Below are positions 16,361-64,000 of a stretch of DNA of 64,000 nucleotides, in pieces (within the stretch, counting starts at the first letter, position 1; each line of letters begins with the position of its first letter). Origin of the DNA: Eubacteriales bacterium (GTDB taxonomy: Bacteria > Bacillota > Clostridia > Oscillospirales > JAAYXM01); contig JAZTXE010000084.1 of assembly GCA_045636205.1 (NCBI GenBank), positions 8,893 through 72,892 of the forward strand, read 5' to 3'. The notes under the pieces were generated by a model. It was not told the origin of the DNA. It was given only the letters and a program-made list of their open reading frames with translations, and ran no database searches. The position numbers were made by a program, and so were the translations under genes.

Positions 16361-16458
16361 TTTTATAACCTCCGTTTTCGCCGTTTCAGGCGATTTGTTT
16401 TATATACCCAGTATATGTTTTACTGTGCAAAAAGGAAACAGATAAAGAATATATGTCA

Positions 16459-16490
16459 AAAAAGAAAAAAGTCGGTTGAAAAACCGACCG
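16459..16490 (-). terminator. terminator hairpin of the lysine riboswitch expression platform
   Basis: On the minus strand, GTCGGTT-TTTC-AACCGAC is followed by TTTTTTCTTTTTT. It lies between the L-box aptamer and the asd start codon. Confidence 0.75.
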
Positions 16491-16499
16491 CTTTTGTAA

Positions 16500-16732: not shown

Positions 16733-16852
16733 ACTATATTTCCTTTTGCTCATAATATATCATTTGTTTTAAATTCTGTCAACACTAAATCAGTCAATAG
16801 TGCCCATTTTGGTGCATTTTCATACAAAGCATGGAAACGGAGTGCCTTTTTT

Positions 16853-47754: not shown

Positions 47755-47977
47755 ATTCCTCACCCTTTCACACACCGATAATCAAATTTCGATATAGATA
47801 CAAATTATTATATCAAACTAACAAGCAATTTACAACAATTATATTTTCAGTTTTACCCATAAAAAGAAAAGATTATATATAAATCATCTCTATGCCAGTC
47901 CGTGAGTTTTATCAGACATGCAATAAATACCCATTCATGCGTAGAATATAATAATCTGCTTTCGGAGGTGTGTAAAC

Positions 47978-48679: not shown

Positions 48680-48731
48680 TTAAAGCAAATCATCTTAAAT
48701 AAAACAAAAAGTTTTTCTCTATCTGATTATC

Positions 48732-48763
48732 AAAAAGCGGTGAGGTCTCCCTCACCGTTTTTT
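48732..48763. terminator. bidirectional terminator between sigK and galE
   Basis: Stem CGGTGAGG / CCTCACCG with loop TCTC, flanked by AAAAA and TTTTT. Confidence 0.85.
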
Positions 48764-48770
48764 ATGTTTT

Positions 48771-49772
48771 TTATCCTTGTTTTGTCATGAAGTTCCAACT
48801 GTCGCGGCACATGTCCGAAATATCGTATTTAGCTTTCCAGTTAAGAAGTTTTTGCGCCTTCTCGGTATCCGCATAACACGATGCAATATCTCCCGGGCGT
48901 CTGTCAACAATCTTTCTGGCAATTTCTTTTCCGCATGCCTTTTCATATGCACTCAGAACATCCAGAACGCTCGAACCTTTTCCGGTACCCAGGTTTATCG
49001 CCTCAGCTCCTGCGTTTTCAAAAGCGTATTCAAGTGCTCGCAAATGCCCCTGCGCCAAATCAACAACATGTATGTAATCACGCACTCCGGTTCCGTCATG
49101 TGTGTCATAATCTCCGCCAAAAACGTTCAAGTGCGGAAGCTTACCCACCGCTACACGTGCTACATACGGCACCAGATTATTAGGAATACCCGCCGGATTC
49201 TCACCTATAAGTCCGCTCTGATGGGCACCTATGGGATTGAAGTAACGGAGAAGAACAACACTCCACTCACCGTCTGAATTGCATATATCAGTAAACATCT
49301 GTTCCTGCATAAGCTTTGTATAACCGTAAGGATTTGTAGCCGAAAGAGATGCATCCTCACGGAACGGTACGGTATTGTGCATTCCATAAACCGTCGCCGA
49401 TGAAGAAAAGACTAGTTTTTTACATCCGTCTTCGCGCATTACGCGGCAAAGATTGAGGGTGCCTACAATGTTGTTGTGATAATACTCTATAGGCTTTTCG
49501 ACTGATTCTCCAACCGCCTTGAGTCCTGCAAAATGAATTACCGCATCAATCTTATTTTCATCAAAAATCTTTTTAACAGCCGCTTCATTGAGCAGGTCAT
49601 CCTGATAAAACTTAGGTTTTACACCGGTTATTTCCTCGATTTTATCCAAAACACCAATCTCAGAATTTGACAAATTATCTATTATTATTACGTTATATTT
49701 ATTCTCAATAAGCTCTACGCAAGTATGGCTTCCTATAAACCCCGTACCGCCTGTAACCAAAATATTCTTCAT
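48771..49772 (-). CDS. galE: UDP-glucose 4-epimerase
   Basis: 333 aa with N-terminal VTGGTGFIGSH and the YxxxK catalytic motif (YGYTKLM). Confidence 0.92.
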   Translation of the reverse strand: MKNILVTGGTGFIGSHTCVELIENKYNVIIIDNLSNSEIGVLDKIEEITGVKPKFYQDDLLNEAAVKKIFDENKIDAVIHFAGLKAVGESVEKPIEYYHNNIVGTLNLCRVMREDGCKKLVFSSSATVYGMHNTVPFREDASLSATNPYGYTKLMQEQMFTDICNSDGEWSVVLLRYFNPIGAHQSGLIGENPAGIPNNLVPYVARVAVGKLPHLNVFGGDYDTHDGTGVRDYIHVVDLAQGHLRALEYAFENAGAEAINLGTGKGSSVLDVLSAYEKACGKEIARKIVDRRPGDIASCYADTEKAQKLLNWKAKYDISDMCRDSWNFMTKQG

Positions 49773-49850
49773 GTCTTAACCTCCAAAAATTCCTTTTCGA
49801 TTATTATATCCAATTGCATATTCATTGTCAATTCAAGGTAAAGATAAATA

Positions 49851-49879
49851 TTGACTAATTATTAATAATACATTATACT
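49851..49879 (+). promoter_or_regulatory. sigma-A type promoter of the amino-acid ABC operon
   Basis: TTGACT (49851-49856), a 17-nt spacer, then TATACT (49874-49879). Confidence 0.6.
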
Positions 49880-49903
49880 TAGTTATACATTTTATATAAC
49901 TAA
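49879..49903. promoter_or_regulatory. operator-like inverted repeat overlapping the predicted transcription start
   Basis: TTAGTTATA, 7 nt, TATAACTAA. The 9-bp arms are perfect and the repeat directly abuts the -10 element. Confidence 0.4.
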
Positions 49904-49921
49904 TGAACAGGAGCTGACAGC

Positions 49922-50596
49922 TTGGATATTTTATGGAGCAGCATATATCAGAACCTTATAAAAGGCTCTCGTTATCTGTATTATTTAAGTGGTTTAAAGA
50001 CCACCATTCTTTTATCTCTTGCCGCAATCGCCTTCGGTATTCTTTTAGGCTTTGTGGCAACATTTCTGCGCAGGTCGCGTTTTAAACTCTTCCGCGCTAT
50101 CGGTTACATATATGTTGATGTTATACGCGGTACACCGTCAGTGGTCCAGCTTACACTCATTTACTTTGTAGTGTTCGCATCGGTCAATATAGATAAGTTC
50201 ATAATCGCACTCATCGCATTCGGCTTAAACAGCGGTGCTTATATTTCGGAAATCTTCCGCGCAGGTCTTGAGTCTATCGACAAAGGTCAGACAGAAGCCG
50301 GTCGTTCTCTGGGACTAAGTTCATCGCAGACAATGATTTTCATCATTCTCCCGCAAGCGGTAAAAAACATATTACCCGCTTTGGTAAATGAGTTTATCAT
50401 GCTCGTAAAGGAAACCGCTATTGTAGGCTTTATCGCCATGGAGGATTTAAACCGCGCAAGCGAAATCGTTCAGAGTATAACTTACGCACCGTTTGCCCCC
50501 CGAATTATAGTTGCAATCGTATATTATATTGTAATCAAACTTTTGACATTAGCCCTCGGTCGTTTCGAGCGTTGGCTTAAAAAGTCCGAACACTAA
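49922..50596 (+). CDS. amino-acid ABC transporter permease (HisM/GlnP type)
   Basis: 224 aa, polar amino-acid permease family, with the EAA-like loop ([22 protein letters not shown]). Confidence 0.88.
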
Positions 50597-50610
50597 AGGA
50601 GGCAAAACAA

Positions 50611-51342
50611 ATGATTGAAGTAACAGGTCTTTGCAAATCCTTTGGTGACCTTCAGGTTCTCAGAGGGATAGATGAGCACATTTATCCGGGTGAAAAAGTA
50701 GTAGTAATCGGTCCGTCAGGCTCAGGAAAAAGCACCTTCCTGCGCTGTCTCAATTTACTTGAGCACCCGACTTCCGGAACCATCCTTGTCGAAGGTGAAA
50801 ACATCACGGATCCTAAAGCAGATGTTGATAAGATACGTCAGAAAATGGGAATGGTATTCCAGCAGTTTAATCTGTTCCCTCACCTATCTGTTATGGAAAA
50901 CATAACATTGGCTCCGGTAAAAACAAAAAAATGCTCTCAGGAAGAAGCCAACGAAAAAGCGTTAGAACTTCTAAAAAAAGTAAACTTATCCGATAAGGCA
51001 GATGCCTTCCCCAACCAACTCTCCGGCGGTCAGAAACAGCGCATTGCAATAGTACGTGCCATGGCAATGTCACCTGATATTATGCTCTTTGATGAGCCTA
51101 CAAGTGCACTTGACCCGGAAATGGTCGGCGAAGTTTTAGAAGTAATGAAGGACTTGGCAGATGGCGGAATGACCATGGTGGTTGTAACCCATGAGATGGC
51201 ATTTGCACGCGAAGTCGCTTCCCGTGTCCTTTTCATGGACCAGGGCATAATCCTTGAACAAGGTCACCCCAACGAATTCTTCGCCAATCCCCAACACGAA
51301 AGAACACGCACTTTCTTAAAGCGCGTTTCTAAAACATTATAA
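50611..51342 (+). CDS. amino-acid ABC transporter ATP-binding protein
   Basis: Walker [13 protein letters not shown] signature LSGGQKQR and Walker [12 protein letters not shown]. Confidence 0.93.
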
Positions 51343-51365
51343 TTTTTTTCAGGAGGTTAAAAACC

Positions 51366-52145
51366 ATGAAAATCAAACGCATTATCGCCGGCGCACTGGC
51401 TTGCGCCACACTGTTTGTTCTGGCAGCTTGCGGAGCCTCAACAGACGAGAAGAAAGTTATCACCCTCGCAACCAACGCAGAATTCCCTCCCTTTGAATTT
51501 GTTTCAGACCAGGGCACAGGTGTTGTTGACCAGTTTGACGGCATCGACATTCTCATTGGCGCAGAAATCGCAAAGGACCTCGGCTGTGAGCTCAAAATTG
51601 AGAACATGAAGTTTGAGTCCATCCTTGCAGCAGTTGCTACCGGCAAGGCAGATATGGCTCTTGCAGGCATGACAGTTAAACCCGACCGTTTGGAAAACGC
51701 TGACTTTAGTGAGCCGTACTGGGTTGCTGTTCAGACAATCCTTGTTCCCGAGGAAAACACCGACGTTGTAGACGTTGAGTCTCTTCGTGGTAAGAAAATC
51801 GGCGTAGTTACCGGTTACACCGGTGACAGTGCTCTCGTAGACATGGGCTTTGAGTCCGACCTTCACCGTTACACCAAGGGTGTTGACGCGGTTATGGACC
51901 TCAAGGCAGGCAACCTCGACGCTGTAGTTATCGACTCCCCGACTGCTAACCGCTTCATCGAGAAGTTCGGCGGGATCAAGGGTATCAATGACGAAACTGC
52001 TTTTGAGACCGAGGAATATGCTGTCGGCGTCAAGAAGGGCAACACCGAGCTTCTTGAGAAGATCAATGCCACCATCATCCGCCTCAAGGAAAACGGCGAC
52101 ATTGACCGCTTCGCAGAAGAAATCGACGCTCGTTTAGGCGAATAA
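51366..52145 (+). CDS. amino-acid ABC transporter substrate-binding lipoprotein
   Basis: Lipobox LFVLAAC and a family-3 solute-binding domain. Confidence 0.85.
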   Translation: MKIKRIIAGALACATLFVLAACGASTDEKKVITLATNAEFPPFEFVSDQGTGVVDQFDGIDILIGAEIAKDLGCELKIENMKFESILAAVATGKADMALAGMTVKPDRLENADFSEPYWVAVQTILVPEENTDVVDVESLRGKKIGVVTGYTGDSALVDMGFESDLHRYTKGVDAVMDLKAGNLDAVVIDSPTANRFIEKFGGIKGINDETAFETEEYAVGVKKGNTELLEKINATIIRLKENGDIDRFAEEIDARLGE

Positions 52146-52160
52146 TTCTTACATAACATA

Positions 52161-52196
52161 AAAAAACTGTTGCAGTAAAACTGCAACAGTTTTTTT
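52161..52196. terminator. bidirectional terminator
   Basis: Stem CTGTTGCAG / CTGCAACAG flanked by AAAAAA and TTTTTTT. Confidence 0.85.
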
Positions 52197-52563
52197 AGCT
52201 TCCAAAATCCTCTAAAATCATACTCAATGCTTCATCGCCGTAAACGGTTATTCCCTGCTCTAATAAATCCTGGTCATATCTCCTGAGCGATTCTACATAT
52301 ATCTCCGTTGTTTTAACAGGCTCCTCCATATTTACAGGATTAAAAACCGCAAGTTTTCCGTCCTGGCTTTTAACAAGATATCCGTTTTCTTCTCCTACAT
52401 TCTCCTCCGCTTCAGGGATATTCTCCGTACTGCTGTTTACTATATAAACCTTATTTTCTTTCTCTTTTTCAGCACTCTCTCTTAAAGATGTTATTCCGCT
52501 TATCAGCACTGCAAACATACTGAATAAACAACACGCTGAAATTATTACACGTTTATTATCCAT
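52195..52563 (-). CDS. membrane-anchored protein with BofC C-terminal-like domain
   Basis: N-terminal TM anchor. The C-terminal GYLVKSQDGKLAVF...P...I.V..L...D...L..GI pattern resembles the BofC C-terminal domain. Weak assignment. Confidence 0.45.
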   Translation of the reverse strand: MDNKRVIISACCLFSMFAVLISGITSLRESAEKEKENKVYIVNSSTENIPEAEENVGEENGYLVKSQDGKLAVFNPVNMEEPVKTTEIYVESLRRYDQDLLEQGITVYGDEALSMILEDFGS

Positions 52564-52781
52564 ATAAACCTATCACCTGCTTTTTATCTCTTTTGTACTA
52601 TATATTTTCCAAAAAAATCACTTTTATACTCAACCCCCTTTAATTTTTTAGGTAGCTTTATAATCAGATTTGTGGTATACTGTTATTTGAGAAAATTTGC
52701 ATACTAATTTTCTATAGTTTAATTTCCTAAAACATATGCTATGAAAGCATCCATTTCTTTTTATTCGGAGGTGCTGTTACT

Positions 52782-55343
52782 TTGAATAACGGATATTCAA
52801 CAAGAAGAAAAAAACGTAAATCACGTCGCTTTCAATCCATACGTTTACTTCTTATAACAATCGGATTGATAGCCCTTTGCACAATGTTTATATGCGGCAG
52901 TGTTTTTGCATTGTATATGACAACCAGCATTGATTCAAAGCTTGACATCGGTGCCGAAACGATGAATTTAAATTACACGTCTGTGGTTTATTATACGGAT
53001 TCAGATGGTAACGAACACGAACTCGAACAGCTTTTCGCCACTCAGAATCGTACCTGGGCGGATTTAGATGAAATGCCCAAGCACCTTATGAACGCGGCTA
53101 TATCCATCGAAGACGAACGTTTCGAATCTCACAGGGGTGTTGACTGGTACCGCACCGCAGGCGCTGCAGTAAACCTTTTCTTTAAGATGAGAAGTGATTT
53201 TGGCGGTTCCACGATAACTCAGCAGCTTGTAAAAAACCTGACCGGAGACAAACAAGCAACCGTGCAGCGCAAGCTTCAGGAAATAATGCGTGCACGATAT
53301 ATTGAAAGGCATCACACAAAAGACGATATTATCGAACTATACCTCAACACTATATACTTAGGTCAAGGCTGTTACGGTGTGCGCACGGCTGCCGAGGTAT
53401 ACTTTAACAAGGATGTTTCGGAGCTTACATTGGCTGAATGCGCCTCTATTATTGGTATCACCAATCTACCGACATACTATGACCCGTTCATAAACCCGGA
53501 TAACAATAAAAAGCGCCAAGTGAATATACTAAATAAAATGCTTGAGCTTAAAAAGATAACCAAGGAAGAATATGACGAAGCTTTAGCTCAAGAACTGGTA
53601 TTTACCCGCGAAAAAAGAGTTGAGCAAATTACAAGCAAGCAGTCGTACTTTGTCGACCAGGTCATAGAAGATGTAATAGATGACCTTATGGAAGAAAAAG
53701 GCTATTCCTATCAAGTAGCTGAAAAGATGATTTACTCAGGCGGACTCAAGATCTATGCGACGATTGATCCTAAAATCCAGACAGCTATGGATAACGTATT
53801 GAAAAACTCAAGCAACTTCCCCACCTATAAAGGCTCTGTGCAGCCCGAATGCGCTATGGTTGTAATGGACCCCTATACAGGTAACGTTCTTGGTATCGTA
53901 GGCGGTCGAGGAGAGAAAACTCTAAACCGTGGATTAAACCGCGCTACAAACAGCTATCGCCAACCAGGTTCTTCAATTAAACCGCTTGCTGTCTATGCAC
54001 CTGCGATTGAATACAGCCTTATAAATCCGCAAAGTCCGGTTGACGATGCGCCTATAAAAGTTTTAAACAACTCATCCTACCCCAAAAACGAATCACGAAC
54101 CTATTCAGGGCGCACTACTATTTTAAAAGGTCTCGAAGATTCTCTCAACACCGTGGCAATGCGCACACTCGTAGACCTGACTCCCGAGCGTTCATTTAAC
54201 TTCATGACCGCAAATTTAGGTTTTACAAGCTTAAACCGCGAGAAGGACATCAATTTAGCTCCTCTGTCACTTGGTGCACTCACAAAAGGTGTATCCGTCC
54301 TTGAAATGGCAGCTGCTTATTCAACCTTCCCCAACAGAGGAAACTATACAACACCGCGAACATATACTAAAGTATTGGATAATCAAAACAAAGTTCTTTT
54401 GGAAAACAATGCAAGCGTGATTGATGCAATGTCTGAAAAAACCGCTGCATATATGAATTATATGCTTCAAAAAGTTGTCACCCAAGGTACCGGTGTATAT
54501 GCAAAATTAAACGGCGGTATGCCCGCAGCAGCCAAAACCGGTACTACAGATGATGACAAGGACCGCTGGTTTGTCGGCTACACACCATATTACTGCGGTG
54601 CGGTTTGGTTTGGCTACGATAAACCCAAGCAAATTTCTAAATCGCTTTCCCCTGCGCTTACTGTTTGGAAAAAAGTCATGAACGAAATCCACTCAGGACT
54701 TGAAAACAAGAATTTCTTCGAAGCAAAAGATTTTAAATATGTTAATGTCTGTTCATGCAGTGGCCTGCTTCCAACCGAAGCTTGTTCGATTGACCCGCGT
54801 GGCTCGCGCGTCATATCCGGATATTTCCACAAGGACGATGTCCCGAAAAAACGCTGCGATATCCATAAAGAGGTTCAGATCGACAGTACAACAAACCAGC
54901 TTGCAACCAGGTTCTGTCCGGAAGCCAGCTTAAAAACCGTAGGACTTTTGGACTTGAAACGGACATTCCCAATTTCAGGAATAACTTTAGGCGATGAACA
55001 GTATACCATCCGAAGCTATAATGAGGACGGAACTCTCGCAGCTCCAGAAGAAGGGCACTACTACACCTCTGCCGGAACACCACCTTACAACAGCTTGTGT
55101 TCTGCACATCTGACCGCTCCCAAACCCGAACCTGATGAAGACTCTGAAAATACGGATGAAGATTCAGATTTTGAAACAGACTCCGGCGATGAAAATACAG
55201 ACTTAAACGACGGTGACCAAGAACTCAATGTCGGCATTTCTGACGAAAGCGAAAGCACTTCAAATTCCGATAGTGAGAATGCCTCAACTGAGGACAATGG
55301 AGTAAATTCCAATAATCAAAGCACCTCTCAAATCGTCGAATAA
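52782..55343 (+). CDS. bifunctional class A penicillin-binding protein (PBP1A family)
   Basis: GT51 motifs (EDERFESHRGVD, GGSTITQQL), transpeptidase motifs SxxK (SSIK) and KTGTT, and an acidic low-complexity C-terminal tail. Confidence 0.9.
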   Translation: MNNGYSTRRKKRKSRRFQSIRLLLITIGLIALCTMFICGSVFALYMTTSIDSKLDIGAETMNLNYTSVVYYTDSDGNEHELEQLFATQNRTWADLDEMPKHLMNAAISIEDERFESHRGVDWYRTAGAAVNLFFKMRSDFGGSTITQQLVKNLTGDKQATVQRKLQEIMRARYIERHHTKDDIIELYLNTIYLGQGCYGVRTAAEVYFNKDVSELTLAECASIIGITNLPTYYDPFINPDNNKKRQVNILNKMLELKKITKEEYDEALAQELVFTREKRVEQITSKQSYFVDQVIEDVIDDLMEEKGYSYQVAEKMIYSGGLKIYATIDPKIQTAMDNVLKNSSNFPTYKGSVQPECAMVVMDPYTGNVLGIVGGRGEKTLNRGLNRATNSYRQPGSSIKPLAVYAPAIEYSLINPQSPVDDAPIKVLNNSSYPKNESRTYSGRTTILKGLEDSLNTVAMRTLVDLTPERSFNFMTANLGFTSLNREKDINLAPLSLGALTKGVSVLEMAAAYSTFPNRGNYTTPRTYTKVLDNQNKVLLENNASVIDAMSEKTAAYMNYMLQKVVTQGTGVYAKLNGGMPAAAKTGTTDDDKDRWFVGYTPYYCGAVWFGYDKPKQISKSLSPALTVWKKVMNEIHSGLENKNFFEAKDFKYVNVCSCSGLLPTEACSIDPRGSRVISGYFHKDDVPKKRCDIHKEVQIDSTTNQLATRFCPEASLKTVGLLDLKRTFPISGITLGDEQYTIRSYNEDGTLAAPEEGHYYTSAGTPPYNSLCSAHLTAPKPEPDEDSENTDEDSDFETDSGDENTDLNDGDQELNVGISDESESTSNSDSENASTEDNGVNSNNQSTSQIVE

Positions 55344-55442
55344 TTCCCTGATCCATTATTCATCGGCATCAGCCAGCCGCTGTTTACAATACGCTAAACG
55401 GCGGCTGGTATTTTGAAGATACAAAAGGAGAAAACACTTAGT

Positions 55443-56555
55443 ATGGAGCAACTAAATTACACTATCCCTTGCCTTTTCGGCGTTGAATCGGTTGTAGGAA
55501 ATCAATTGAAACGCCTTAATATAAATAATATATCCGTCGAAAACGGCCGTGTTCAGTTTTCGGGTAATATAAGAGACATGGCACGCGCAAATCTATGGGT
55601 TCGCTCAGGTGAGCGTGTGTTGATAAAACTTGGTGAATTCCCTGCACGGACTTTCACCGAGCTTTTTGACAACGTCCTTGAACTCCCATGGGAGAGCTTT
55701 ATACCCAAAGACGGCGAATTCCCAGTAAAAGGCCACGCTTTACATTCTCAGTTGCACTCGGTTCCCGACTGCCAAAGCATAATAAAGAAAGCTGTCGTCG
55801 AAAGGTTAAAACGCCACTACCATTTATCCTGGTTTGAAGAAACCGGCAGCAAGTATCAAATACAGTTTTCCATAATGAAGGATATCGCAACGCTTTATAT
55901 TGACACAAGCGGTGCAGGTCTCCACAAGCGCGGATACCGTGCCATTTCAGGCGGTGCACCGCTAAGAGAAACCTTAGCTGCCGCCATGGTTGAACTAACA
56001 CATTATCGCGGTCGCGAAGTGTTTTGTGACCCTTTTTGCGGCTCAGGTACTATATTAATAGAAGCGGCAATGATTGCTCAAAACCGCGCACCGGGGCTTT
56101 ACCGTCATTTTGCCGCAGAAAAATGGAATCTGTTGCCGCCGCAGGCATGGAAGGAGCTCCGTGCAGAAGCAAAGGAAAAGATGTTCGACCGCCCCTTTGT
56201 TCTTCGCGGCGGAGATACCGACCCTTCAGTTCTTGACATCGCTCGTTCAAATGCTCTCAAGGCCGGTGTAGCACAATATATTAAATTTGAAAAAGCAAAC
56301 GCATGTTCTTTCACTCCACCTGCAGAAAGCGGCATAATACTCACCAATCCGCCTTACGGCGAGCGTCTTCTCGACCAACAAGCCGCACAGGAGCTATACC
56401 GTGGATTTGGAAAAGTCATGCGTAACTACCCGAAATGGAAAAGTTACGTGATAACCTCCGAACCCGAATTTGAACGTTTCTACGGAAAGCGCGCCGCAAA
56501 ACGTCGTAAATTGTACAACGGCATGATCAAGTGCGAATTATTTATGTACAATTGA
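55443..56555 (+). CDS. THUMP-domain class I SAM-dependent RNA methyltransferase (RlmL/YpsC-like)
   Basis: THUMP N-terminal domain, SAM-binding DPFCGSGT and the catalytic NPPYG motif. ATG 55443 lies downstream of AAGGAG; an in-frame TTG at 55413 is possible. Confidence 0.82.
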   Translation: MEQLNYTIPCLFGVESVVGNQLKRLNINNISVENGRVQFSGNIRDMARANLWVRSGERVLIKLGEFPARTFTELFDNVLELPWESFIPKDGEFPVKGHALHSQLHSVPDCQSIIKKAVVERLKRHYHLSWFEETGSKYQIQFSIMKDIATLYIDTSGAGLHKRGYRAISGGAPLRETLAAAMVELTHYRGREVFCDPFCGSGTILIEAAMIAQNRAPGLYRHFAAEKWNLLPPQAWKELRAEAKEKMFDRPFVLRGGDTDPSVLDIARSNALKAGVAQYIKFEKANACSFTPPAESGIILTNPPYGERLLDQQAAQELYRGFGKVMRNYPKWKSYVITSEPEFERFYGKRAAKRRKLYNGMIKCELFMYN

Positions 56556-56690
56556 TTTATTAACTTTTTATGAAAAACTTGAAAATCGGAGCTTTTTGAA
56601 GAAAACATAAGAAATACGTATATTCGAAGAGATATTCTCGTGTAACTCGAATTAACACTTGTTTTTATCTTTTTTTAAAAAACTTATAAC

Positions 56691-56719
56691 TTGCAGAAAT
56701 GGCAATTTTCTCTTATTAT
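56691..56719 (+). promoter_or_regulatory. sigma-A type promoter of groESL
   Basis: TTGCAG (56691-56696), a 17-nt spacer, then TATTAT (56714-56719). Confidence 0.6.
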
Positions 56720-56730
56720 ATTATTTGAAA

Positions 56731-56757
56731 TTAGCACTCTCGCTTTTTGAGTGCTAA
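56731..56757. promoter_or_regulatory. CIRCE operator (HrcA binding site)
   Basis: Perfect consensus TTAGCACTC-N9-GAGTGCTAA, located between the promoter and the groES RBS. Confidence 0.95.
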
Positions 56758-56776
56758 ATCACGTTACAGTATATAA

Positions 56777-58751
<1,975 letters not shown>

Positions 58752-58772
58752 TCCCACGCTAAATATGAACAT

Positions 58773-58806
58773 AAAAACGCTGTGGAAATTCCACAGCGTT
58801 TTTTAT
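58773..58806. terminator. bidirectional terminator between groEL and ogg
   Basis: Stem AACGCTGTGG / CCACAGCGTT flanked by AAAAA and TTTTTT. Confidence 0.85.
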
Positions 58807-58811
58807 TATTT

Positions 58812-59654
58812 TCATTTTTCGTTCAGGCTCCTTATGTAGTGAAACAAGTATTGTTGAGCTAATCCCGCATATTCACCAAAGCATGCACCGTCAAACTTAA
58901 TATCACCAAAAAACTCTTCAGCTACACGCTTCATCCACACATCTATCGGATAAACCTCCATGCGTCCAAGACCGTAAAGGAGAACGCAATCAGCAACTTT
59001 TCTGCCAACTCCCTGAAGTAACATCAGCTTTTTCCTCGCTTGCTCCGTGCTTAAGTCTTCGATTCCGTCAAGCTCACCCGAAACCATGGCACGCGCCGCA
59101 GAAATTAAATATTTGGCTCTGTACCCCGACCGTATAACACCGAGCTCCTCCTCGCTGAGACACACAATCTTTTCAGCCTCAGGAAAAGTATACAACACTT
59201 CCCCATCGAAGCATATTTTTTCGCCGAAATTGCGGCACAAGCTGTCAATTATACCTTTAATACGCGGGATATTATTACACTGCGAAATTATAAAAGAGCA
59301 CAGCGTCTCCCAAAAGTCCTGACGCAAAATCCGTATACCCTTTCCATACTCAACAGCGGGTGCGAGCTTTAAATTATCAGATAATCCGCCACGTATCACA
59401 TCGTACTTACGCTCCAAATCAAAGTACTCGCACCATATATCATCAAAATCCGTCTCATTTGCGCATTTAAATATCACTCTGCCTTGCTGTTGAAAAACCT
59501 TCAAAGGCACACCTTTTGCAATCCCTATATACGCACCGTCATTTGTTATTTTCCATCTGAATGCCTGCCCGCACTCAAAAATCAGTTCCGAGGAAAAGTC
59601 CTCGAATTGTTCAAGAGTTACAGACACCCCGTTTCTTACTATTTTCATCCCCAA
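58812..59654 (-). CDS. ogg: 8-oxoguanine DNA glycosylase / HhH-GPD base-excision repair enzyme
   Basis: OGG N-terminal domain (ECGQAFRW) and an HhH-GPD motif (LQGVGRKVADCVLLYG...PIDVW). Confidence 0.78.
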   Translation of the reverse strand: MGMKIVRNGVSVTLEQFEDFSSELIFECGQAFRWKITNDGAYIGIAKGVPLKVFQQQGRVIFKCANETDFDDIWCEYFDLERKYDVIRGGLSDNLKLAPAVEYGKGIRILRQDFWETLCSFIISQCNNIPRIKGIIDSLCRNFGEKICFDGEVLYTFPEAEKIVCLSEEELGVIRSGYRAKYLISAARAMVSGELDGIEDLSTEQARKKLMLLQGVGRKVADCVLLYGLGRMEVYPIDVWMKRVAEEFFGDIKFDGACFGEYAGLAQQYLFHYIRSLNEK

Positions 59655-59740
59655 AACTGCTCCTTAAAACTTTAGCATTGCGTATCTTTCATTTTCCTGA
59701 TACAATATTTATTGTACACTTTTTCTCACTGAGGTGCAAT

Positions 59741-60436
59741 ATGAAGGAAACAATTTACACAATACCAATTAACGAAGCATATGACAAATTAGACGGTTGT
59801 CCGATATGCCGTTTGGAAAACGATTTAGAGGAAACATCCGTCGACTACATAATGGGCGCAGCGATGATGGAACCGGATGTGCGCATAGAAACAAACAAAG
59901 TCGGCTTCTGCCCCTCCCATTTCAAGCTTATGCTTACGGTAAAAAAGCGCTTAAGCTTAGCACTCATGCTTGAGAGTTATCTAAACGAGCTGTGCGAAAA
60001 ATGCCTGCCTGAGGACACATCAAAGCTAAATAAAAAAGATTTAGAAAGCATTTCTTCCTCGCTCAAAAGCGCATCAGACGAATGCTTCGTCTGCAATCAG
60101 CTTCACGAGCGTATGGAGAAGTATTACAGGAACATAATTTATCTTTGGCGTACAGATGCGGAATTTAGAAAAAAAACGCAAAATCAGGAGTTTTTCTGCA
60201 TCCACCATTTAGCAGAACTTTGCGAGCACGCAAAAAAAGAGCTCGATAAAAAAAGTATTCCCTCCTTTTTATCCGACCACATGAGTGCCGCAAGAAAAAA
60301 AGCAGCATCGCTAAACGAAGACGTTTCCGCATTCTGCAAAAGCTTTGACCACCGCTTTGCTAATATGCCACTTACCGATTCAGAAAAATACGCTGTTGAG
60401 AACTCAATTGATTTTTTAAACGGTAATAAAAAGTAA
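59741..60436 (+). CDS. DUF6062-like Cys-rich protein
   Basis: Begins MKETIYTIPINEAYDKLDGCPICRL. Further CxxH and CxxC pairs are present (FCPSHF, ECFVCNQ, FCIHH). ATG 59741 follows a GAGGTG RBS; the ORF-track start at 59561 overlaps ogg and has no RBS. Confidence 0.6.
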   Translation: MKETIYTIPINEAYDKLDGCPICRLENDLEETSVDYIMGAAMMEPDVRIETNKVGFCPSHFKLMLTVKKRLSLALMLESYLNELCEKCLPEDTSKLNKKDLESISSSLKSASDECFVCNQLHERMEKYYRNIIYLWRTDAEFRKKTQNQEFFCIHHLAELCEHAKKELDKKSIPSFLSDHMSAARKKAASLNEDVSAFCKSFDHRFANMPLTDSEKYAVENSIDFLNGNKK

Positions 60437-60519
60437 TTTAAAAAATTCTATTCCATTTTTTTGAATTTTTTTATATAATAAAAATAATATTATTTTTCAA
60501 TTAAGGAGCGATTCCCAAA

Positions 60520-61911
60520 ATGAATTTCTTAAGTCTAAATCTTCAAATCAAAAACATTCCTGAGCTTGACCCGAGCTTCATTCCTCTTGCAAAATTCAGC
60601 CGTGCTTTTAAAGAAAGCGTCGGCGACAACGGCAATCTTTTTAAAGTTGCTATAGAGCGTGAAAACAATCAGGTAGCAGCGTTTGACTTATATATTCACG
60701 GAACCGAAGAAATGTACGAAGCAGACTTTACATATGTAGAGCGTTTTATAAAAAATGTTCTTTGGTCATGCGGCGGCTTCCGCATATATTTAGCAGGTAA
60801 CGATAACATCATAAGTGCAATAAAAGACGCTTACACCCCCGGCGGTGCGCGTGATTTTGACCGCATTAACATGTCTCAAATTTACGAAAAGGAATTTGAG
60901 GTTATTTCCTGTTCCCTTGATGAATTCCCGGCTTCCAACAACGAATCCAAAAGTGTCGGCCGTCACTTGAACGGTTGCCGTATAGGCTTTGACGCAGGCG
61001 GAAGTGACCGCAAGGTATCAGCAGTTGTTGACGGCGAAGCAATTTGGAGCGAGGAGGTCGTATGGCATCCGAAAACCACTTCTGACCCTGATTATCACTT
61101 TGACGGAATCGTAGCCGCAATGAAAAGTGCAGCTGCAAAAATGCCGAGAGTTGACGGTATAGGCGTAAGCTCTGCGGGTATATATGTAAATAACCGTACC
61201 ATGCTCGCTTCCCTCTTCTTAAAAGTTTCAAAGGAAGACTTTGATGCAAAGGTAAAGGATATATACATCCGCGCCGCAAAAGAAATAGGCGATGTTCCCC
61301 TTGTCGTTGCAAACGACGGTGACGTAACCGCTCTCGCCGGCGCTATGAATTTAAAGGACAATAACGTGCTCGGTATAGCAATGGGCACCAGTGAGGCTGC
61401 CGGATTTGTTGATGGCGCCGGCAATATAACCGGATGGCTCAACGAACTTGCTTTTGCTCCGGTTGACCTTTGTAAGACCGCAATGGTAGATGAATGGTCC
61501 GGCGACCGTGGCTGCGGTGTTAAATATTTCTCGCAGGACGGCGTAAACAAGCTCGCACCAATTGCAGGTATCGCACTGGATGAAAATGCAACCCCCGCTG
61601 AAAAACTAAAGGTCACTCAAAAGCTCATGGCTGAAAAAGACCCGCGCGCTGCATCAGTATACCGTTCAATCGGTGTATACCTCGGTCACTCACTGGCATG
61701 GTACTCTGAGCTTTATGACATGAAGCATGTTCTCCTTCTCGGTCGTGTAATGTCAGGAGACGGTGGTAATCTCATCATCGAATATGCAAATAAAGTTTTA
61801 AGCGAAGAATACCCTGAGCTCAAAGAAAAGCTCACGCTCGAGCTTCCGGATGAGTCCTCGCGCCGCGTAGGCCAGTCCGTTGCGGCTGCAAGTCTGCCCG
61901 AATGTAAATAA
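60520..61911 (+). CDS. ROK-family sugar kinase/regulator-like protein with N-terminal extension
   Basis: Actin-fold ATPase motifs (IGFDAGGSDRK, ANDGDVTALAG, GTSEAAG). The N-terminal domain of about 150 aa is of unknown function. Confidence 0.6.
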   Translation: MNFLSLNLQIKNIPELDPSFIPLAKFSRAFKESVGDNGNLFKVAIERENNQVAAFDLYIHGTEEMYEADFTYVERFIKNVLWSCGGFRIYLAGNDNIISAIKDAYTPGGARDFDRINMSQIYEKEFEVISCSLDEFPASNNESKSVGRHLNGCRIGFDAGGSDRKVSAVVDGEAIWSEEVVWHPKTTSDPDYHFDGIVAAMKSAAAKMPRVDGIGVSSAGIYVNNRTMLASLFLKVSKEDFDAKVKDIYIRAAKEIGDVPLVVANDGDVTALAGAMNLKDNNVLGIAMGTSEAAGFVDGAGNITGWLNELAFAPVDLCKTAMVDEWSGDRGCGVKYFSQDGVNKLAPIAGIALDENATPAEKLKVTQKLMAEKDPRAASVYRSIGVYLGHSLAWYSELYDMKHVLLLGRVMSGDGGNLIIEYANKVLSEEYPELKEKLTLELPDESSRRVGQSVAAASLPECK

Positions 61912-61924
61912 TCCGACTATATTT

Positions 61925-61956
61925 CAAGGCTGCATTTTGCAGCCTTGTTTTTTTTA
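61925..61956 (+). terminator. intrinsic terminator after the ROK gene
   Basis: Stem CAAGGCTGC / GCAGCCTTG followed by TTTTTTTT. Confidence 0.85.
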
Positions 61957-62051
61957 CCAGTAAATTACAATCTGCAATCACGGTATGAAATGTGCCCGTT
62001 TCGGAAATAATTTAATTACCATAATTAAACACCTTCAGGGGGATTTTACGG

Positions 62052-62354
62052 ATGCAGACTAAGGTTGAAATTTGCGGAGTTAACACATCAAAATTAAAAG
62101 TCCTTTCAAACGATAAAATTGTCGAACTTCTGAGAAAATATAAAGAAGGAGATGCATCCGCACGAGAAGAACTTATATCAGGTAACCTACGTCTGGTTTT
62201 AAGCGTTATCCAACGATTTTCAAACCGCGGTGAAATGGTGGATGACCTTTTCCAAGTAGGTTGTGTAGGCCTTATAAAAGCAATAGACAATTTTGATATA
62301 ACACTCAATGTTCGCCTGTCCACCTATGCAGTGCCGATGAATATACCATGTTGA
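62052..62354 (+). pseudogene. sigG: 5' fragment of sporulation sigma factor SigG (split gene; homology ends at 62339)
   Basis: Codons 1-96 carry SigG hallmarks: KVEICGVNTSKL, GNLRLVLSVIQRF, DDLFQVGCVGLIKAIDNFD and STYAVPM. Then come four unrelated codons (NIPC) and TGA, where SigF/SigG continue IIGEI. Regions 2.4, 3 and 4 are absent. Confidence 0.85.
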
Positions 62355-62365
62355 AATACATATTA

Positions 62366-63733
62366 TTACACATTAAAATCAATGTGTATCTCTTCGTCTT
62401 TTATTATAATCTTATTTATCAAAGATTTCAAGATAGTCTGCCGTTCTCTAAGGTCTGCATGCTCCCATATCGACGGTAGATTTTTTGCTAATGTCTGCAA
62501 TCTCTCCCTGTCTTTTTCACTTTTTCTGTATTCTCCCTCCTTTTTTATTTGCATTTCGATTTTTTCTAGCTGCTTCTTTTGCTCGTTTATTGTTTCAAGC
62601 AGTATATCGTCATCTTTATCAGAAACCGCATACAAATTGAGTAATTTCTTTATGCTTGCAGCTATTTTATTTTTTTGCGCCTCTAATAGTTGCTGCACGT
62701 TTTGAGCTTTGTCTGTACTTTTGTCCTCCTTTAATTCGCTCATTTTGATATTTAGCATTGTATCAATCACTATCCGCTCTACATCTTCGGCCCATAACTT
62801 TTCTTGCGGACAGTTTTCATCTTTTACCAAATATTCTCTGTTAGAACCTTGTGTTGAATAACATATTAACTTATCTTTACCGTTCCCCCATTTTTGATAT
62901 CTGAAACGAGCTCCGCAATGACCACAATATAGTAAACCGGTAAGTAATTTTGTACCATATGAATGTATATTGCTTTTGCGTCTCTCCATCATTTCCATTG
63001 TTCTGTAAAAAACTTCTTCGCTCACTATGGGTTCATGTTTGCCTTTATACTCCTCCCCATTGTACTCAATAATGCCAATGTTTGTTTTCCTTCTTAAAAT
63101 TTGGATACATAATCGCTCATACTTAAGCCCCAGCATTTTCGCTATAGAGTTTGTCGAAAAGCCTTGCAGGTATAAGTCATACATCTGCCGTACCATTTCA
63201 GCATCCTCATTAGGCACCAGAACCCCCTCATTTTGGTCGTAATCATATCCGAACGGAATTCTTCCTCCTCCCATCCAAAGTCCGGATTTCACCCTTTCTT
63301 TCATGCCCATGCGGGTACGCTCTCTTATATTCTCTCTTTCAAGCTGAGCAAAGGCTGATAATATACCTATCATAAGTCTGCCCATGGGAGTGGATGTGTC
63401 AAGATTTTCGTTAATTGATACGAAATCAACATTGTGAGAATTAAACACATCTTCAATTAAGTACAAGGTATCTTTTTGCGAACGAGATAATCTATCAAGC
63501 TTATAAACTATACAGTGGCTTATCTTCCCCTTTTTACACATGTCAATAAGTCGCTTTATTTCCGGTCTGTCTAAGTTACTGCCGGACCACCCTCCGTCTA
63601 TAAAAAATTCATAATTTTTTATTTGCTTCATTTTGCAATAAGCTTCCAACGCCTCTTTCTGAGCATCGATGGAATATCCTTCTTCTGCCTGAAAGTCAGT
63701 TGATACACGAATATATATAGCCGGTATTTTCAT
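62366..63733 (-). CDS. large serine recombinase (SpoIVCA / phage integrase type)
   Basis: 455 aa. Resolvase catalytic domain with AIYIRVSTDFQ (nucleophile serine) and YKLDRLSRS, a recombinase domain, a zinc ribbon (CGHCGARF...C), and a long C-terminal coiled coil. GAGGTGA RBS. Confidence 0.9.
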   Translation of the reverse strand: MKIPAIYIRVSTDFQAEEGYSIDAQKEALEAYCKMKQIKNYEFFIDGGWSGSNLDRPEIKRLIDMCKKGKISHCIVYKLDRLSRSQKDTLYLIEDVFNSHNVDFVSINENLDTSTPMGRLMIGILSAFAQLERENIRERTRMGMKERVKSGLWMGGGRIPFGYDYDQNEGVLVPNEDAEMVRQMYDLYLQGFSTNSIAKMLGLKYERLCIQILRRKTNIGIIEYNGEEYKGKHEPIVSEEVFYRTMEMMERRKSNIHSYGTKLLTGLLYCGHCGARFRYQKWGNGKDKLICYSTQGSNREYLVKDENCPQEKLWAEDVERIVIDTMLNIKMSELKEDKSTDKAQNVQQLLEAQKNKIAASIKKLLNLYAVSDKDDDILLETINEQKKQLEKIEMQIKKEGEYRKSEKDRERLQTLAKNLPSIWEHADLRERQTILKSLINKIIIKDEEIHIDFNV

Positions 63734-63752
63734 TTTCTCACCTCTTACTAAT

Positions 63753-63784
63753 TAAAAATAGAGGCCGAGATTAACAGCCTCTAT
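63753..63784 (-). terminator. hairpin terminator immediately upstream of the recombinase gene
   Basis: On the minus strand, ATAGAGGC-11 nt-GCCTCTAT is followed by TTTTT. Only 19 nt separate the T-run from the recombinase ATG. Confidence 0.6.
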
Positions 63785-63791
63785 CTTCCAC

Positions 63792-63929
63792 TTACGCAAA
63801 CACTTGAGATTTTGAGATTTTTTCATAAACACGATACAATAAAGATAGCAATACTTCGTCCCTTATCGTGTATTCCTTCAAATCCTTTATCTCAACAGAT
63901 TCTCCATTAACTGAAACTTTTACTGTCAT
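63792..63929 (-). CDS. small hypothetical protein (45 aa) upstream of the recombinase
   Basis: Hand-translated: MTVKVSVNGESVEIKDLKEYTIRDEVLLSLLYRVYEKISKSQVFA. GGAGTG RBS lies 7 nt upstream. Absent from the ORF track. No family recognised. Confidence 0.45.
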   Translation of the reverse strand: MTVKVSVNGESVEIKDLKEYTIRDEVLLSLLYRVYEKISKSQVFA

Positions 63930-64000
63930 AGAATCACTCCGATCAAAAGTTTTACACAACGATTATTGCCATGCTTTTATAATTTTAAACGCTTGATTTA

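Follow-up and report, generated by a model that had tools for sequence, protein, structure and literature searches.

Recombinase-bearing elements that differ in size and content can interrupt sporulation genes; examples are skin of B. subtilis and the elements vfbin, vrin and gin (in sigK, spoVFB, spoVR and gerE; PMC5595907, bioRxiv 10.1101/2022.02.25.481979). In C. difficile skin, the large serine recombinase (LSR) CD1231 is constitutive, and excision is confined to the mother cell by CD1234, a 72-aa orphan directionality factor with a sigma-E promoter (PMC5025042); CD1234 also appears among the C. difficile sigma-E promoters in the tables of PMC3789822. In the case of SPbeta, a sporulation promoter lies directly upstream of sprB, excision occurs in the mother cell only, and the prophage is retained in the spore genome (PMC4191935). 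Since sigK, spsM and gerE are mother-cell genes, the phenomenon has been described as the reconstitution of mother-cell-specific genes (PMC4191935). For the Listeria prophage A118/phi10403S in comK, excision without lysis followed by re-integration is reported (PMC7397523, and the review PMC7192596). Among 180 Firmicutes genomes surveyed for sporulation genes, split sigK was reported and split sigG was not (bioRxiv 10.1101/2022.02.25.481979). A preliminary description of the DNA analyzed here had stated that the known developmentally excised elements interrupt mother-cell genes. In the open-access literature we searched, the sporulation-gene elements are described as acting in the mother cell, and those open-access papers contained no description of an element interrupting sigG.

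Here we analyzed a window of 64 kb (the whole stretch of DNA under study) in which sigG is split. Like C. difficile skin, the locus involves an LSR-bearing, phage-derived element that splits a sporulation sigma-factor gene. In contrast, the gene is the forespore sigG instead of the mother-cell sigK, and the chromosome affected is the inherited one. The 5' part of sigG (62052-62340, forward strand) encodes SigG residues 1-96, covering sigma regions 1.2-2.3, within an ORF of 100 aa (62052-62354). The NCBIfam SigG equivalog NF006071 covers residues 2-98 of the fragment (E 7e-48, profile positions 3-99 of 258), and a second SigG equivalog, TIGR02850, matches the same residues at E 3e-47. With 163 bits, SigG is the best-ranking family, the 372-bit cut-off being unreachable with 96 residues. 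Sigma region 2 (Pfam PF04542) is the only sigma domain present: after codon 96 the frame passes through N I P C, four unrelated codons, to a TGA at 62352-62354. The GC content is 41.7% in 62281-62340 and 25.0% in 62341-62400. No 3' half of sigG was found by tblastn in the 64-kb window, which does contain a whole sigK (47978-48679; 305 bits with NF004471, whose cut-off is 252).

A sister genome, L087, was reached through GroEL. It is syntenic with the window, with 89.5% nucleotide identity over 7 kb, and carries an intact sigG of 257 aa, which clears the 372-bit SigG equivalog cut-off at 436.5 bits and has sigE and spoIIGA after it. The BLASTN alignment between the two stops exactly at window position 62340 (L087 15218), and L087 represents the empty integration site in a sister species. 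The preliminary description was correct in reading SigG for 96 codons from 62052 and a loss of homology at 62339/62340, with four unrelated codons and a stop replacing the later regions, a GC drop from 42% to 25% at the break, and an intact sigK in the same window. It had also proposed a comparison with relatives carrying an intact sigG, and the syntenic L087 loses similarity precisely at the break.

The LSR gene (62366-63733, reverse strand) is complete, encodes 455 aa and has its stop codon 25 nt from 62340, as had been noted before. Its product contains a Resolvase domain (PF00239; E 1.7e-43, residues 5-151, with the nucleophilic catalytic serine in the motif AIYIRVSTD) together with Recombinase (PF07508) and Zn_ribbon_recom (PF13408) domains. 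In the PDB it matches the catalytic domain of the TP901-1 integrase (3bvp, E 7e-34), and the best structural match of its C-terminal part (residues 137-453) is the C-terminal domain of the A118 integrase (4kis, E 2e-23). The protein therefore has the N-terminal catalytic domain and the C-terminal recombinase, zinc-ribbon and coiled-coil architecture of the phage-type serine integrases. As in C. difficile skin, the LSR gene lies at the element's edge. As with A118/phi10403S in comK, a prophage of the same broad LSR family (36% identity) interrupts a host regulator, while SprA of SPbeta is a distant relative of the window LSR (PDB 9dxh, E 2e-6). Large serine recombinases recombine attP with attB alone, and attL with attR only when a directionality factor is present.

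The insertion site comprises sigG codons 95-97, in the conserved region-2.4 sequence TAT GCN GTN CCN ATG ATT. A comparison of the L082 attL, the L086 attP and the L087 attB delimits a block common to attB and attP, TGCCGATGA, at 62332-62340. Because of the symmetry center of the intact attP sites and the 9 shared bases, we place the putative crossover dinucleotide at the CC of the Pro codon (62334-62335). Thus, position 62340, previously given as the break, holds as the end of similarity, while the crossover itself would lie some 5 nt upstream of it. On the element side, the P' arm ATGAATATACCATGTTGAAA (62337-62356) has the motif ATGA-AT(G/A)T-N4/5-TGTCGAAA, which is found at 37 other attL junctions and, as its reverse complement, at attR junctions and in both arms of intact attP sites. 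Such intact attP sites, near-perfect palindromes, occur right after the LSR gene in L086, L085, L245 and L022; that of L086 reads TTTCGACTAGGTACATTCAT-CGGC-ATGAATGTACCTAGTCGAAA, with CGGC as the palindrome center. The sites are short imperfect inverted repeats around a putative 2-bp crossover, with no long duplication, as is usual for serine integrases, and attP and attB have only 7-9 bp in common; the window itself shows the attL half alone.

The joined sigG sequence (attB) is expected to read TATGCAGTGCCGATGATTATTGG. At its two ends, the element L026 carries a direct repeat, CCGATGA, and joining attL and attR of L026 or L171 in silico at CCGATGA gives ...YAVPMI(I/L)GE... in frame. Sites of all four kinds, attP, attB, attL and attR, are definable. 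An element-borne replacement sigG fragment was ruled out, as the attP-form elements carry none: the element interrupts the sigG coding sequence without providing a substitute. With an LSR at the element edge, a short core and no replacement fragment, the layout indeed resembles skin in sigK and SPbeta in spsM, as first suggested. The family att half-site at the junction and the empty site in L087 establish that an LSR-bearing element is integrated in, and splits, sigG.

This arrangement recurs widely. Among 80 related LSR loci in different species, 47 abut one half of a sigG split at this same codon (the 5' half in 37, the 3' half in 11), and at the 30 loci lacking sigG no fragment of any other sigma factor was found. 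In metagenomes, 62 of 120 matches to the attR pattern were genuine junctions, and the same junction is present in 14 prophage contigs of IMG/VR. The LSR has 2,271 homologues at E<=1e-100, and the family of which the element is a member is very large and apparently undescribed; nucleotide and protein searches of GenBank phages returned no cultured relative above 52% identity. Exact-protein look-ups gave no record of the window's LSR, truncated SigG or ROK protein. Intact attP sites, together with the 95-97% identity between the integrated L082 and the attP-form L086 of a single metagenome, indicate that the family is mobile. L086 encodes a terminase, a capsid protein, a replication initiator and an HNH protein. 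Genes for ribonucleotide reductase, dUTPase, holin and amidase are present in the window's closest relatives, L245 (70%) and L246 (68%). The close relatives are thus phage in nature and, unlike C. difficile skin, many members are complete phages and not relics. Like SPbeta in spsM (SprA/SprB), an active temperate phage that its LSR excises from a sporulation gene, they would be expected to leave sigG by LSR-mediated excision. Other members have no phage genes, as seen among skin, vfbin, vrin and gin: L026 (14.7 kb), whose cargo is intact metabolic genes, and L022 (9.6 kb), found in its attP form, both retain the recombination module described below.

The window element runs beyond the window end (63991-64000), leaving attR and the sigG 3' half outside. 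L244 is the same element, with an LSR 99% identical, and reaches 1.07 kb further, through a 590-nt non-coding region and into a phage-family gene (phrog_9501, E 9e-15). Pairing attL-pattern with attR-pattern matches in IMG/VR to size an integrated prophage gave zero shared contigs. As the window stops 1.66 kb into the element, with the far junction out of view, one could ascribe the break at 62340 to faulty assembly or to plain decay of the gene. We consider this extremely improbable: the junction has the family att half-site, seen at dozens of independent junctions, and the L244 junction was assembled independently from SRA run SRR28204440, for which reason we reject a mis-assembly.

Across the family, the recombination module has a conserved order: a forespore-type promoter, a small gene (40-60 aa), the LSR gene, attP and ORFX, the name used here for a 190-215-aa gene on the far side of attP, which the module thus straddles. 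In the window the small gene encodes 45 aa (MTVKVSVNGESVEIKDLKEYTI...; 63792-63929, reverse strand; RBS GGAGTGA at 63934-63940), and in L244 it was likewise called as a 45-aa gene. In a profile search, 67 of 87 loci had a member of this gene family placed directly upstream of the LSR, divergent copies were recognized by eye in four more, and dN/dS is ~0.2 in one group. The small protein is a candidate recombination directionality factor or cofactor. It had no match in Pfam, PHROG or the PDB, which includes SprA-SprB complexes and was searched with an 18-member profile, nor did ORFX in Pfam, PHROGs or the PDB. These same databases gave no detectable resemblance between the small protein and the known directionality factors. 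Such factors are notoriously unrelated to each other, and this absence therefore says little about function.

The small gene is co-transcribed with the LSR gene and overlaps its start codon in many loci. If it encoded a classical directionality factor, integration would consequently need additional control. Between the two genes lies a terminator-like hairpin (63754-63784, reverse strand; ATAGAGGC / GCCTCTAT, 11-nt loop, then a T-run; RNAfold -19.5 kcal/mol), with equivalents in the same place in L086, L083 and L245. A simple terminator scan overlooked it because the loop exceeds 8 nt, and folding revealed it. In L086 and L245, as in SPbeta, the candidate directionality gene ends a long same-strand phage operon and in addition has its own sporulation-type promoter. 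This layout would permit two modes of excision, one upon induction and one during development.

The promoter of the module in the window (63962-63990, reverse strand) consists of GTTTA (63990-63986), a 15-nt spacer and GGCAATAAT (63970-63962). It follows a two-block family consensus ahead of the small gene, TG(T/A/C)ATA-N14/15-G(G/T)(C/G)AATA(A/C)T, which is conserved in a 45-locus alignment. Scored by a matrix whose training excluded the window, it ranks first in all 64 kb on both strands (18.2 bits). Of 63 upstream regions, 39 had the two-block pattern, whereas shuffles gave 1.18 +/- 1.1 and the control upstream regions 14 of 1,173 (1.2%). We compared the matrix with the mapped C. difficile promoter sets (Saujet 2013, PMC3789822, Tables S6 and S7). 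The median scores were 8.9 bits for sigma-F, 5.8 for sigma-G, -3.3 for sigma-E and -3.5 for sigma-K promoters, and 8 bits or more were reached by 18 of 41 forespore promoters and by 0 of 70 mother-cell (sigma-E/K) promoters. The family promoter also shows both features described as sigma-F-like, a conserved upstream G and no conserved downstream A (PMC3789822). Judged by its motif, it matches the mapped C. difficile sigma-F/sigma-G type and not the sigma-E/sigma-K type, and we infer that it may be used by sigma-F. The truncated sigG retains its own forespore-type promoter (61983-62011, forward strand; GTATG at 61983-61987, a 15-nt spacer and GGAAATAAT at 62003-62011), which reaches 13.3 bits under the matrix derived from other loci and is similar to the mapped C. 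difficile sigG promoter, GTATA..GTAAATAAT.

As in C. difficile skin, then, a small orphan protein stands behind a sporulation-sigma promoter; there it sets the time and place of excision, a role we predict for it here. In contrast to skin, the promoter is of the sigma-F/G type instead of the sigma-E type. The absence of mother-cell promoters at or above the 8-bit level and the forespore nature of SigG (PMC4191935) together set this element apart from the known intervening elements of the terminal mother cell. The same promoter is also found at 17 loci without a sigma-factor fragment within 10 kb, and for this reason it may be a property of the LSR family and not be tied to the targeting of sigG.

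In an alternative reading, the near-symmetric, conserved sigG sequence is simply an attachment site and sigG is collateral damage of ordinary lysogeny. Lysogens would be asporogenous, blocked after engulfment; excision would take place on prophage induction only; and the promoter would be a phage or sigma-A promoter that resembles the forespore type by chance. The -10 block AATAAT does resemble a sigma-A -10, as part of a 9-of-12 sigma-70-like match. In addition, serine integrases frequently insert within genes, the nearest characterized ones (A118/U153 and phiFC1, 36-39% identity) are ordinary phage integrases, complete-looking phages exist among the close relatives, and the window insertion is recent, being missing in the sister species at ~90% nucleotide identity. 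We nevertheless consider this reading, in all its parts, unlikely. It fails to account for a promoter motif that is conserved over LSRs only 47-60% identical, in flanking sequence that is not, and that fits sigma-F/G and none of the 70 sigma-E/K promoters. Nor does it account for the retention of the module by stripped-down, non-phage elements, or for the purifying selection on LSR and sigG halves where a clade has inherited the split state.

That clade, the L035 clade, comprises at least 9 species with synteny conserved on both sides. Its LSR and sigG 5' half have dN/dS ~0.07-0.09, with dS saturated, and LSR distances correlate with those of a host-side flanking protein (r = 0.82); the split sigG and the LSR have been inherited across species under purifying selection. 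The window insertion, absent from L087, is younger than the sister-species split, and purifying selection is therefore uninformative about it. These observations bear on a one-way version of developmental excision, in which the element leaves in the forespore or the predivisional cell, sigG is restored, the spore is cured, and the element persists through non-sporulating siblings, induction and re-infection. It rests on the same promoter and att evidence as the forespore-excision model, LSR excision products are stable while the directionality factor is present, and empty sites such as the intact sigG of L087 are common. However, an element lost at each sporulation should disappear from lineages transmitted obligately by spores, whereas L026, L022 and the L035 clade persist although they are non-phage and unable to re-infect, and the elements of the L035 clade co-diverge with their host. 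We regard one-way excision as quite unlikely.

At many loci the neighboring DNA looks host-like, and the second sigG half lies at a distance of over 10 kb. In the L035 clade, L225, L226, L233, L240 and L015, metabolic genes (for 2-oxoacid:ferredoxin oxidoreductase, branched-chain aminotransferase and pta) abut the small-gene/LSR module, with no other sigG half within 10 kb. A synteny comparison with the attR loci did not locate the missing half of the L035 clade and showed only that a branched-chain aminotransferase gene also adjoins sigG in some other genomes. Serine recombinases acting on inverted att sites give inversion. In such host-flanked members, with sigG halves far apart or inverted, sigG could then be restored by a recombinase that flips or relocates part of the chromosome instead of excising a compact element, freely reversibly and with no DNA lost. 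We find this very improbable: the sole two loci with both halves, L026 (14.7 kb) and L171 (0.6 kb), have them in direct orientation and, for the window, the close relatives are phages and L087 is a simple empty site.

Taking these results together, 62332-64000 represents the left end (attL) of an integrated element of temperate-phage type, and we consider it likely that sigma-F turns on excision in the forespore, rebuilding the sigG that the element splits. Our model suggests that in the prophage state sigG would be unable to yield a functional sigma factor. After asymmetric division, forespore sigma-F would transcribe both the sigG promoter and the small-gene/LSR unit, and attL would be recombined with attR by the LSR, assisted by a directionality factor that could be the small protein or possibly ORFX. 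The element would exit as a circle, sigG would be restored in frame, and sigma-G would be made. The circle would be trapped in the non-dividing forespore and, once the directionality factor is gone, the LSR alone could re-integrate it; alternatively, it could restart as a phage at germination. Unlike in SPbeta, the predicted compartment of excision is the forespore. Unlike in A118/phi10403S, the proposed trigger is a developmental sigma factor and not the intracellular environment, and reversibility is here a proposal.

The preliminary description had offered three options: reversible excision, loss of the element at every sporulation, or an asporogenous host. The first is retained in part: developmentally triggered excision in the forespore is favored because the sigma-F-like promoter is conserved and one clade inherited the split sigG, while its reversibility, or at least its not being lossy, is only probable. 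For re-integration after excision without virion production, the long inheritance of the split state in one clade and the occurrence of non-phage elements in attP form lend indirect support. Loss at every sporulation is disfavored for old, vertically inherited elements, since the L035 clade inherited the split state under purifying selection, and is possible for recent prophages such as the window element. An asporogenous host is disfavored, if still conceivable, for the window genome.

In the known cases with a stated compartment (sigK, spsM and gerE), and in the heterocyst cases, the rearrangement occurs in a terminal cell whose genome is discarded, and this is the standard explanation for why it is tolerated. 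A split sigG breaks this rule because sigG is needed in the future spore cell. If the forespore promoter is real, phages would be wired into the passage from sigma-F to sigma-G, the timing of which is a matter of continuing debate. Excision would then have to be reversible, or the element would have to survive as a spore episome, a point relevant to the persistence and spread of phages alongside the spores of gut anaerobes. The family would also offer a large natural set of integrases with attB and attP sites as genetic tools, and possibly a new class of small directionality factors. Tentatively, and with slightly more doubt than belief, we extend the model to a programmed rearrangement of germ-line DNA in many gut and environmental Clostridia, in which forespore sigma-F triggers the integrase module, a prophage or its relic leaves sigG, sigma-G depends on this excision, and the spore-borne circle re-inserts later. 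If true, this would be the first rearrangement of a sporulation gene beyond the mother cell, adding a checkpoint between sigma-F and sigma-G and making spores a vehicle for phage genomes. A split sigG will, moreover, be annotated as a pseudogene, and the genomes of its hosts could be wrongly classed as non-sporulating.

The preliminary description had read the ORF at 62052 as a truncated sigG, broken at 62340, where the GC content drops, with a 455-aa large serine recombinase (LSR) gene ending 25 nt beyond, and each of these features was borne out by the analysis. The truncated ORF (62052-62354, + strand) encodes 100 aa. Hits to the curated SigG equivalogs NF006071 (E 7e-48) and TIGR02850 (E 3e-47) cover residues 2-98, corresponding to positions 3-99 of a profile of about 258; sigma region 2 was the only sigma region that the domain search identified in it. 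GC falls from 41.7% to 25.0% across 62340. The LSR gene (62366-63733, - strand, 455 aa) is complete, with Resolvase, Recombinase and Zn_ribbon_recom domains and its catalytic serine within AIYIRVSTD. It can be aligned with the TP901-1 integrase in its N-terminal domain (E 7e-34) and with the DNA-binding region of the A118 integrase over residues 137-453 (E 2e-23). No sigG 3' half was found in a search of the whole 64-kb window. The sigK gene is intact, as reported earlier, at 47978-48679; in this lineage it lies 14 kb upstream of sigG, without a skin element.

An intact relative and a possible mis-assembly, both raised in the preliminary description, could be addressed with two further contigs. 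L087, a metagenome-assembled contig from NCBI (GCA_045652405.1) that also encodes the GroEL sequence of the window, is syntenic with window positions 47096-62340, to which it is about 90% identical in nucleotide sequence. Its site is empty, with an uninterrupted sigG of 257 aa (436.5 bits against a cut-off of 372) and then sigE and spoIIGA downstream on the opposite strand. The two sequences cease to be similar exactly at window position 62340; therefore, the insertion is real and younger than the split of the two lineages. The same junction, with a 99% identical LSR, was assembled independently from SRA run SRR28204440 (contig L244), which rules out a mis-join at 62340. In this lineage sigG is convergent with sigE and spoIIGA (L087:14930-17370), unlike in Bacillus, where sigG is downstream of spoIIGA-sigE.

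Scanning one genome per species with the window LSR as query yielded 80 LSR loci (47-61% identity) in Lachnospiraceae, Oscillospiraceae and other Clostridia. In 37 of the 80, a convergent sigG 5' half, broken at the same codon, comes after the LSR gene; in 11, a co-directional sigG 3' half that begins at that codon does. These two arrangements are one insertion, with a near-palindromic attP (the element site) used in either polarity. We also searched IMG/VR and metagenomes with a 22-base pattern for the right junction. It is carried by 14 IMG/VR prophage contigs of 26-67 kb, with an LSR adjoining it in 11, some just 37% identical to that of the window; the metagenomes hold at least 62 true junctions (62/120 among the matches listed). 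At least 2,271 LSR homologues at E<=1e-100 were present among the protein database candidates scored, and the sigG insertion is a member of a very large family. A distant second clade of LSRs shows about 37% identity to that of the window (L091-L093, L101, L103, L106, L109 and L112 from IMG/VR, metagenome 3300045988, together with L127, L159, L178 and L230). In these prophage contigs, of 27-56 kb, the LSR lies next to the sigG 3' half, at the same codon, which would reflect either convergence of several integrase lineages on this codon or a very old association.

The left junctions (attL) share the consensus ...GCN GTN CCN ATG A / AT(G/A)T N4-5 TGTCGAAA and the right junctions (attR) TTTCGAC N9-10 TCAT N / CCN ATG ATN ATN GG. 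Four contigs (L086, L085, L245 and L022) carry an un-recombined attP directly after the LSR stop codon, which in L086 reads TTTCGACTAGGTACATTCAT-CGGC-ATGAATGTACCTAGTCGAAA, with two perfect 20-nt arms. L086 and the integrated L082, from one metagenome, are 95-97% identical and diverge right after TCATCGGCA; thus, TGCCGATGA is common to attP and attB, the empty sigG site. From the symmetry centre of attP, the putative 2-bp crossover falls within the proline codon, at its CC (window 62334-62335). At L026, where both junctions of a single element can be seen, CCGATGA occurs as a direct repeat.

What kind of element splits sigG? L086 is a complete-looking siphovirus-type genome, with large terminase, portal, protease, major capsid, replication initiator, methylase and HNH genes. 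L245, a 106-kb contig in attP form (LSR 70% identical to the window's), carries anaerobic ribonucleotide reductase, dUTPase, dNMP kinase, holin, amidase and tail-like genes, and in L246 (LSR 68% identical) an L245-like phage is integrated and adjoins a sigG 3' half. Because these nearest relatives of the window element are phages, and because L244, which lengthens that element by 1.07 kb, carries a phage-family gene (phrog_9501, E 9e-15), the window most likely contains one edge of an L245/L246-like prophage. Among cultured phages in GenBank, a protein search found none with an LSR more than 52% identical to the window's. About 0.5 kb past the window end, two copies of TTCGACAAATTTGACG about 100 nt apart (L244:500-640) sit in a 590-nt non-coding stretch between the phrog_9501 gene and the promoter of the small gene described below; they could be operator or iteron-like.

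Other family members are stripped down. In L026, a termite-gut Oscillospiraceae MAG, 14.7 kb separate the sigG halves (3563-18257). No phage genes were found in this element, whose cargo is ordinary-looking metabolic and polysaccharide genes (malQ, an NRAMP transporter, pxpABC-like genes, biotin carboxylase, polysaccharide synthesis); its small gene and LSR lie mid-element, 6.9 kb from attL. L022 (1-9601), a 9.6-kb contig with its start within attP (..ATATTCATTCCGATGATTATATTAAGTTGAAAC) and its end within the LSR gene, encodes two large uncharacterised proteins, an XRE-type (helix-turn-helix) repressor-like protein, the small protein and the LSR. Structural genes are absent, and the contig resembles a small non-phage element in its circular form. 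In metagenome contig Ga0183095_10584 (L171:750-1345), the sigG halves lie on one strand, 595 bp apart, around an insert with the family inverted-repeat ends (ATATGAGTGTCAAAA ... TTTTGACAAGCAACAGTCAT), one GNAT-like gene and no recombinase; this is a miniature, non-autonomous family member, unless that sigG is dead.

In several clades the small-gene/LSR module directly adjoins host-like genes: 2-oxoacid:ferredoxin oxidoreductase, branched-chain aminotransferase and amidohydrolase genes in the L035 clade (L035, about 4500-9760, with L036, L042, L047, L051, L052, L056, L077 and L032), and pta in L225, L226, L233 and L240. These arrangements are syntenic across species, and no other sigG half was found within 10 kb. 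A large cargo-rich element may lie between the sigG halves there. The halves may instead be in an inversion-type arrangement, but L026 and L171, the sole two loci with both halves, have them in direct orientation.

Directly upstream of the LSR gene lies a small gene of 40-60 aa (consensus M-x-I/V-x-R-Y-x-N-G-x-x-V...L-K-x-x-x-I), detected in 67 of 87 loci by profile search and by eye, as divergent copies, in four more. In the window it occupies 63929-63792 (- strand) and has a good ribosome-binding site; the protein has no match in Pfam, PHROGs or PDB. Upstream DNA is otherwise unconserved, apart from a two-block motif, TG(T/A/C)ATA, 14-15 nt, G(G/T)(C/G)AATA(A/C)T, located 14-55 nt before the start codon. 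The pattern occurs in 39 of 63 upstream regions. Dinucleotide shuffles gave 1.18 +/- 1.1 matches (at most 5, over 200 shuffles), and of 1,173 regions upstream of the loci's other genes, 14 (1.2%) matched.

Judged by sequence, this is the motif of clostridial forespore promoters. Mapped C. difficile sigma-F promoters include those of spoIIQ (-35 GTATA, -10 GTCAATAAT, 15-nt spacer), gapN (GTTTA, GGCTATAAT), spoIIR (GAATA, GGACATAAT) and sigG (GTATA, GTAAATAAT) (Saujet et al. 2013 Table S6, PMC3789822). A weight matrix built solely from 45 module sites scored the mapped sigma-F promoters at a median of 8.9 bits (6/11 at >=8 bits) and sigma-G promoters at 5.8 bits (12/30), while promoters of sigma-E and those of sigma-K had medians of -3.3 (0/47) and -3.5 bits (0/23). 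In sigma-F promoters a G is retained upstream of the -10 block, and in sigma-G promoters an A is retained downstream (PMC3789822); the upstream G is present in 43 of 45 module sites, which have no conserved downstream A. With a matrix trained without the window, no site on either strand of the 64 kb scored higher than that of the small gene (63990-63961, GTTTA-N15-GGCAATAAT, 18.2 bits), and the candidate sigG promoter (61983-62011, GTATG-N15-GGAAATAAT) scored 13.3 bits. Against sigma-F use, the -10 block of the module promoter also resembles that of sigma-A; against a tie to sigG, 17 promoter-bearing loci have no sigma-factor fragment within 10 kb. Module and forespore-type promoter occur together in L034, L037, L039, L040, L043, L044, L050, L054, L059, L063-L066, L069, L071, L072, L074 and L079, where neither sigG nor any other sigma-factor fragment lies within 10 kb and the LSR gene is not followed by an att half-site; other genes may be interrupted there, or these may be large elements with the LSR far from their ends. 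CD1229, adjoining the C. difficile sigK/skin locus, has a mapped sigma-F promoter (GTATT..GTCAATAAT; Saujet 2013 Table S6, PMC3789822) whose -10 block several of the LSR modules share exactly.

Our working model is that the element is most likely excised from sigG during sporulation. Sigma-F would most likely transcribe the small gene, then the LSR gene by read-through or coupling; attL x attR recombination would restore sigG, and its promoter, already active, would then yield full-length sigma-G. The logic matches that of the C. difficile skin element, whose integrase is made everywhere and whose 72-aa orphan directionality factor, under a sigma-E promoter, limits excision to the mother cell (PMC5025042), although the sigma factor implied here is the forespore's. 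It also matches SPbeta, where sprB has its own sporulation promoter plus read-through from phage genes (PMC4191935). Since the small gene is the last of a long same-strand block of early genes in phages such as L086 and L245, induction could also drive it, as with sprB. A strong hairpin and T-run separate it from the LSR gene in the window (-19.5 kcal/mol), L086, L083 and L245; the two genes overlap in many other loci. If the small protein is the directionality factor, however, co-transcription with the LSR leaves integration hard to favour. A candidate alternative or additional player is ORFX (190-215 aa, start MTRKQA..., no family match), on the other side of attP from the LSR (L086:11394-12002, L245:11434-12069, L026:3603-4208, L022:52-636) and kept in the non-phage elements L026, where it lies at attR, and L022. 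ORFX starts 20-40 nt past attP, so that what precedes it in the prophage is the sigG 3' half, in antisense. Because it is downstream of the LSR gene in the excised circle only, it may be expressed from the circle only.

Excision in the forespore would take the element off the sole inherited chromosome. In a clade of at least nine species-level genomes, synteny is kept on both sides of the junction, with median identities of 72% for the LSR and 84% for the sigG 5' half, dN/dS of about 0.07-0.09 for both (synonymous sites being saturated), and LSR distances that correlate (r = 0.82) with the distances for a flanking protein on the host side. L026 and L022, elements unable to re-infect, persist with intact cargo. 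This selection, synteny, co-variation and persistence argue that the element is not simply lost at excision. LSRs generally perform attP x attB recombination alone (PMC5025042); therefore, a circle trapped in the non-dividing forespore could re-insert once the directionality factor is gone. Alternatively, the circle might wait for germination.

In agreement with the preliminary description, we found no account of an element in sigG in the open-access literature searched. Reviews and primary papers list sigK, spsM, spoVFB, spoVR and gerE as rearranged sporulation genes and stress the mother cell (PMC4191935, PMC7192596, PMC5595907, PMC5025042), and a 180-genome survey of sporulation genes reported split sigK only (bioRxiv 10.1101/2022.02.25.481979). 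The likeness to skin and SPbeta proposed earlier holds, as the sigG element has the same parts, an LSR-bearing element splitting a sporulation gene. In contrast to both, it sits in the forespore line with a forespore-type promoter, and this changes the biological problem posed.
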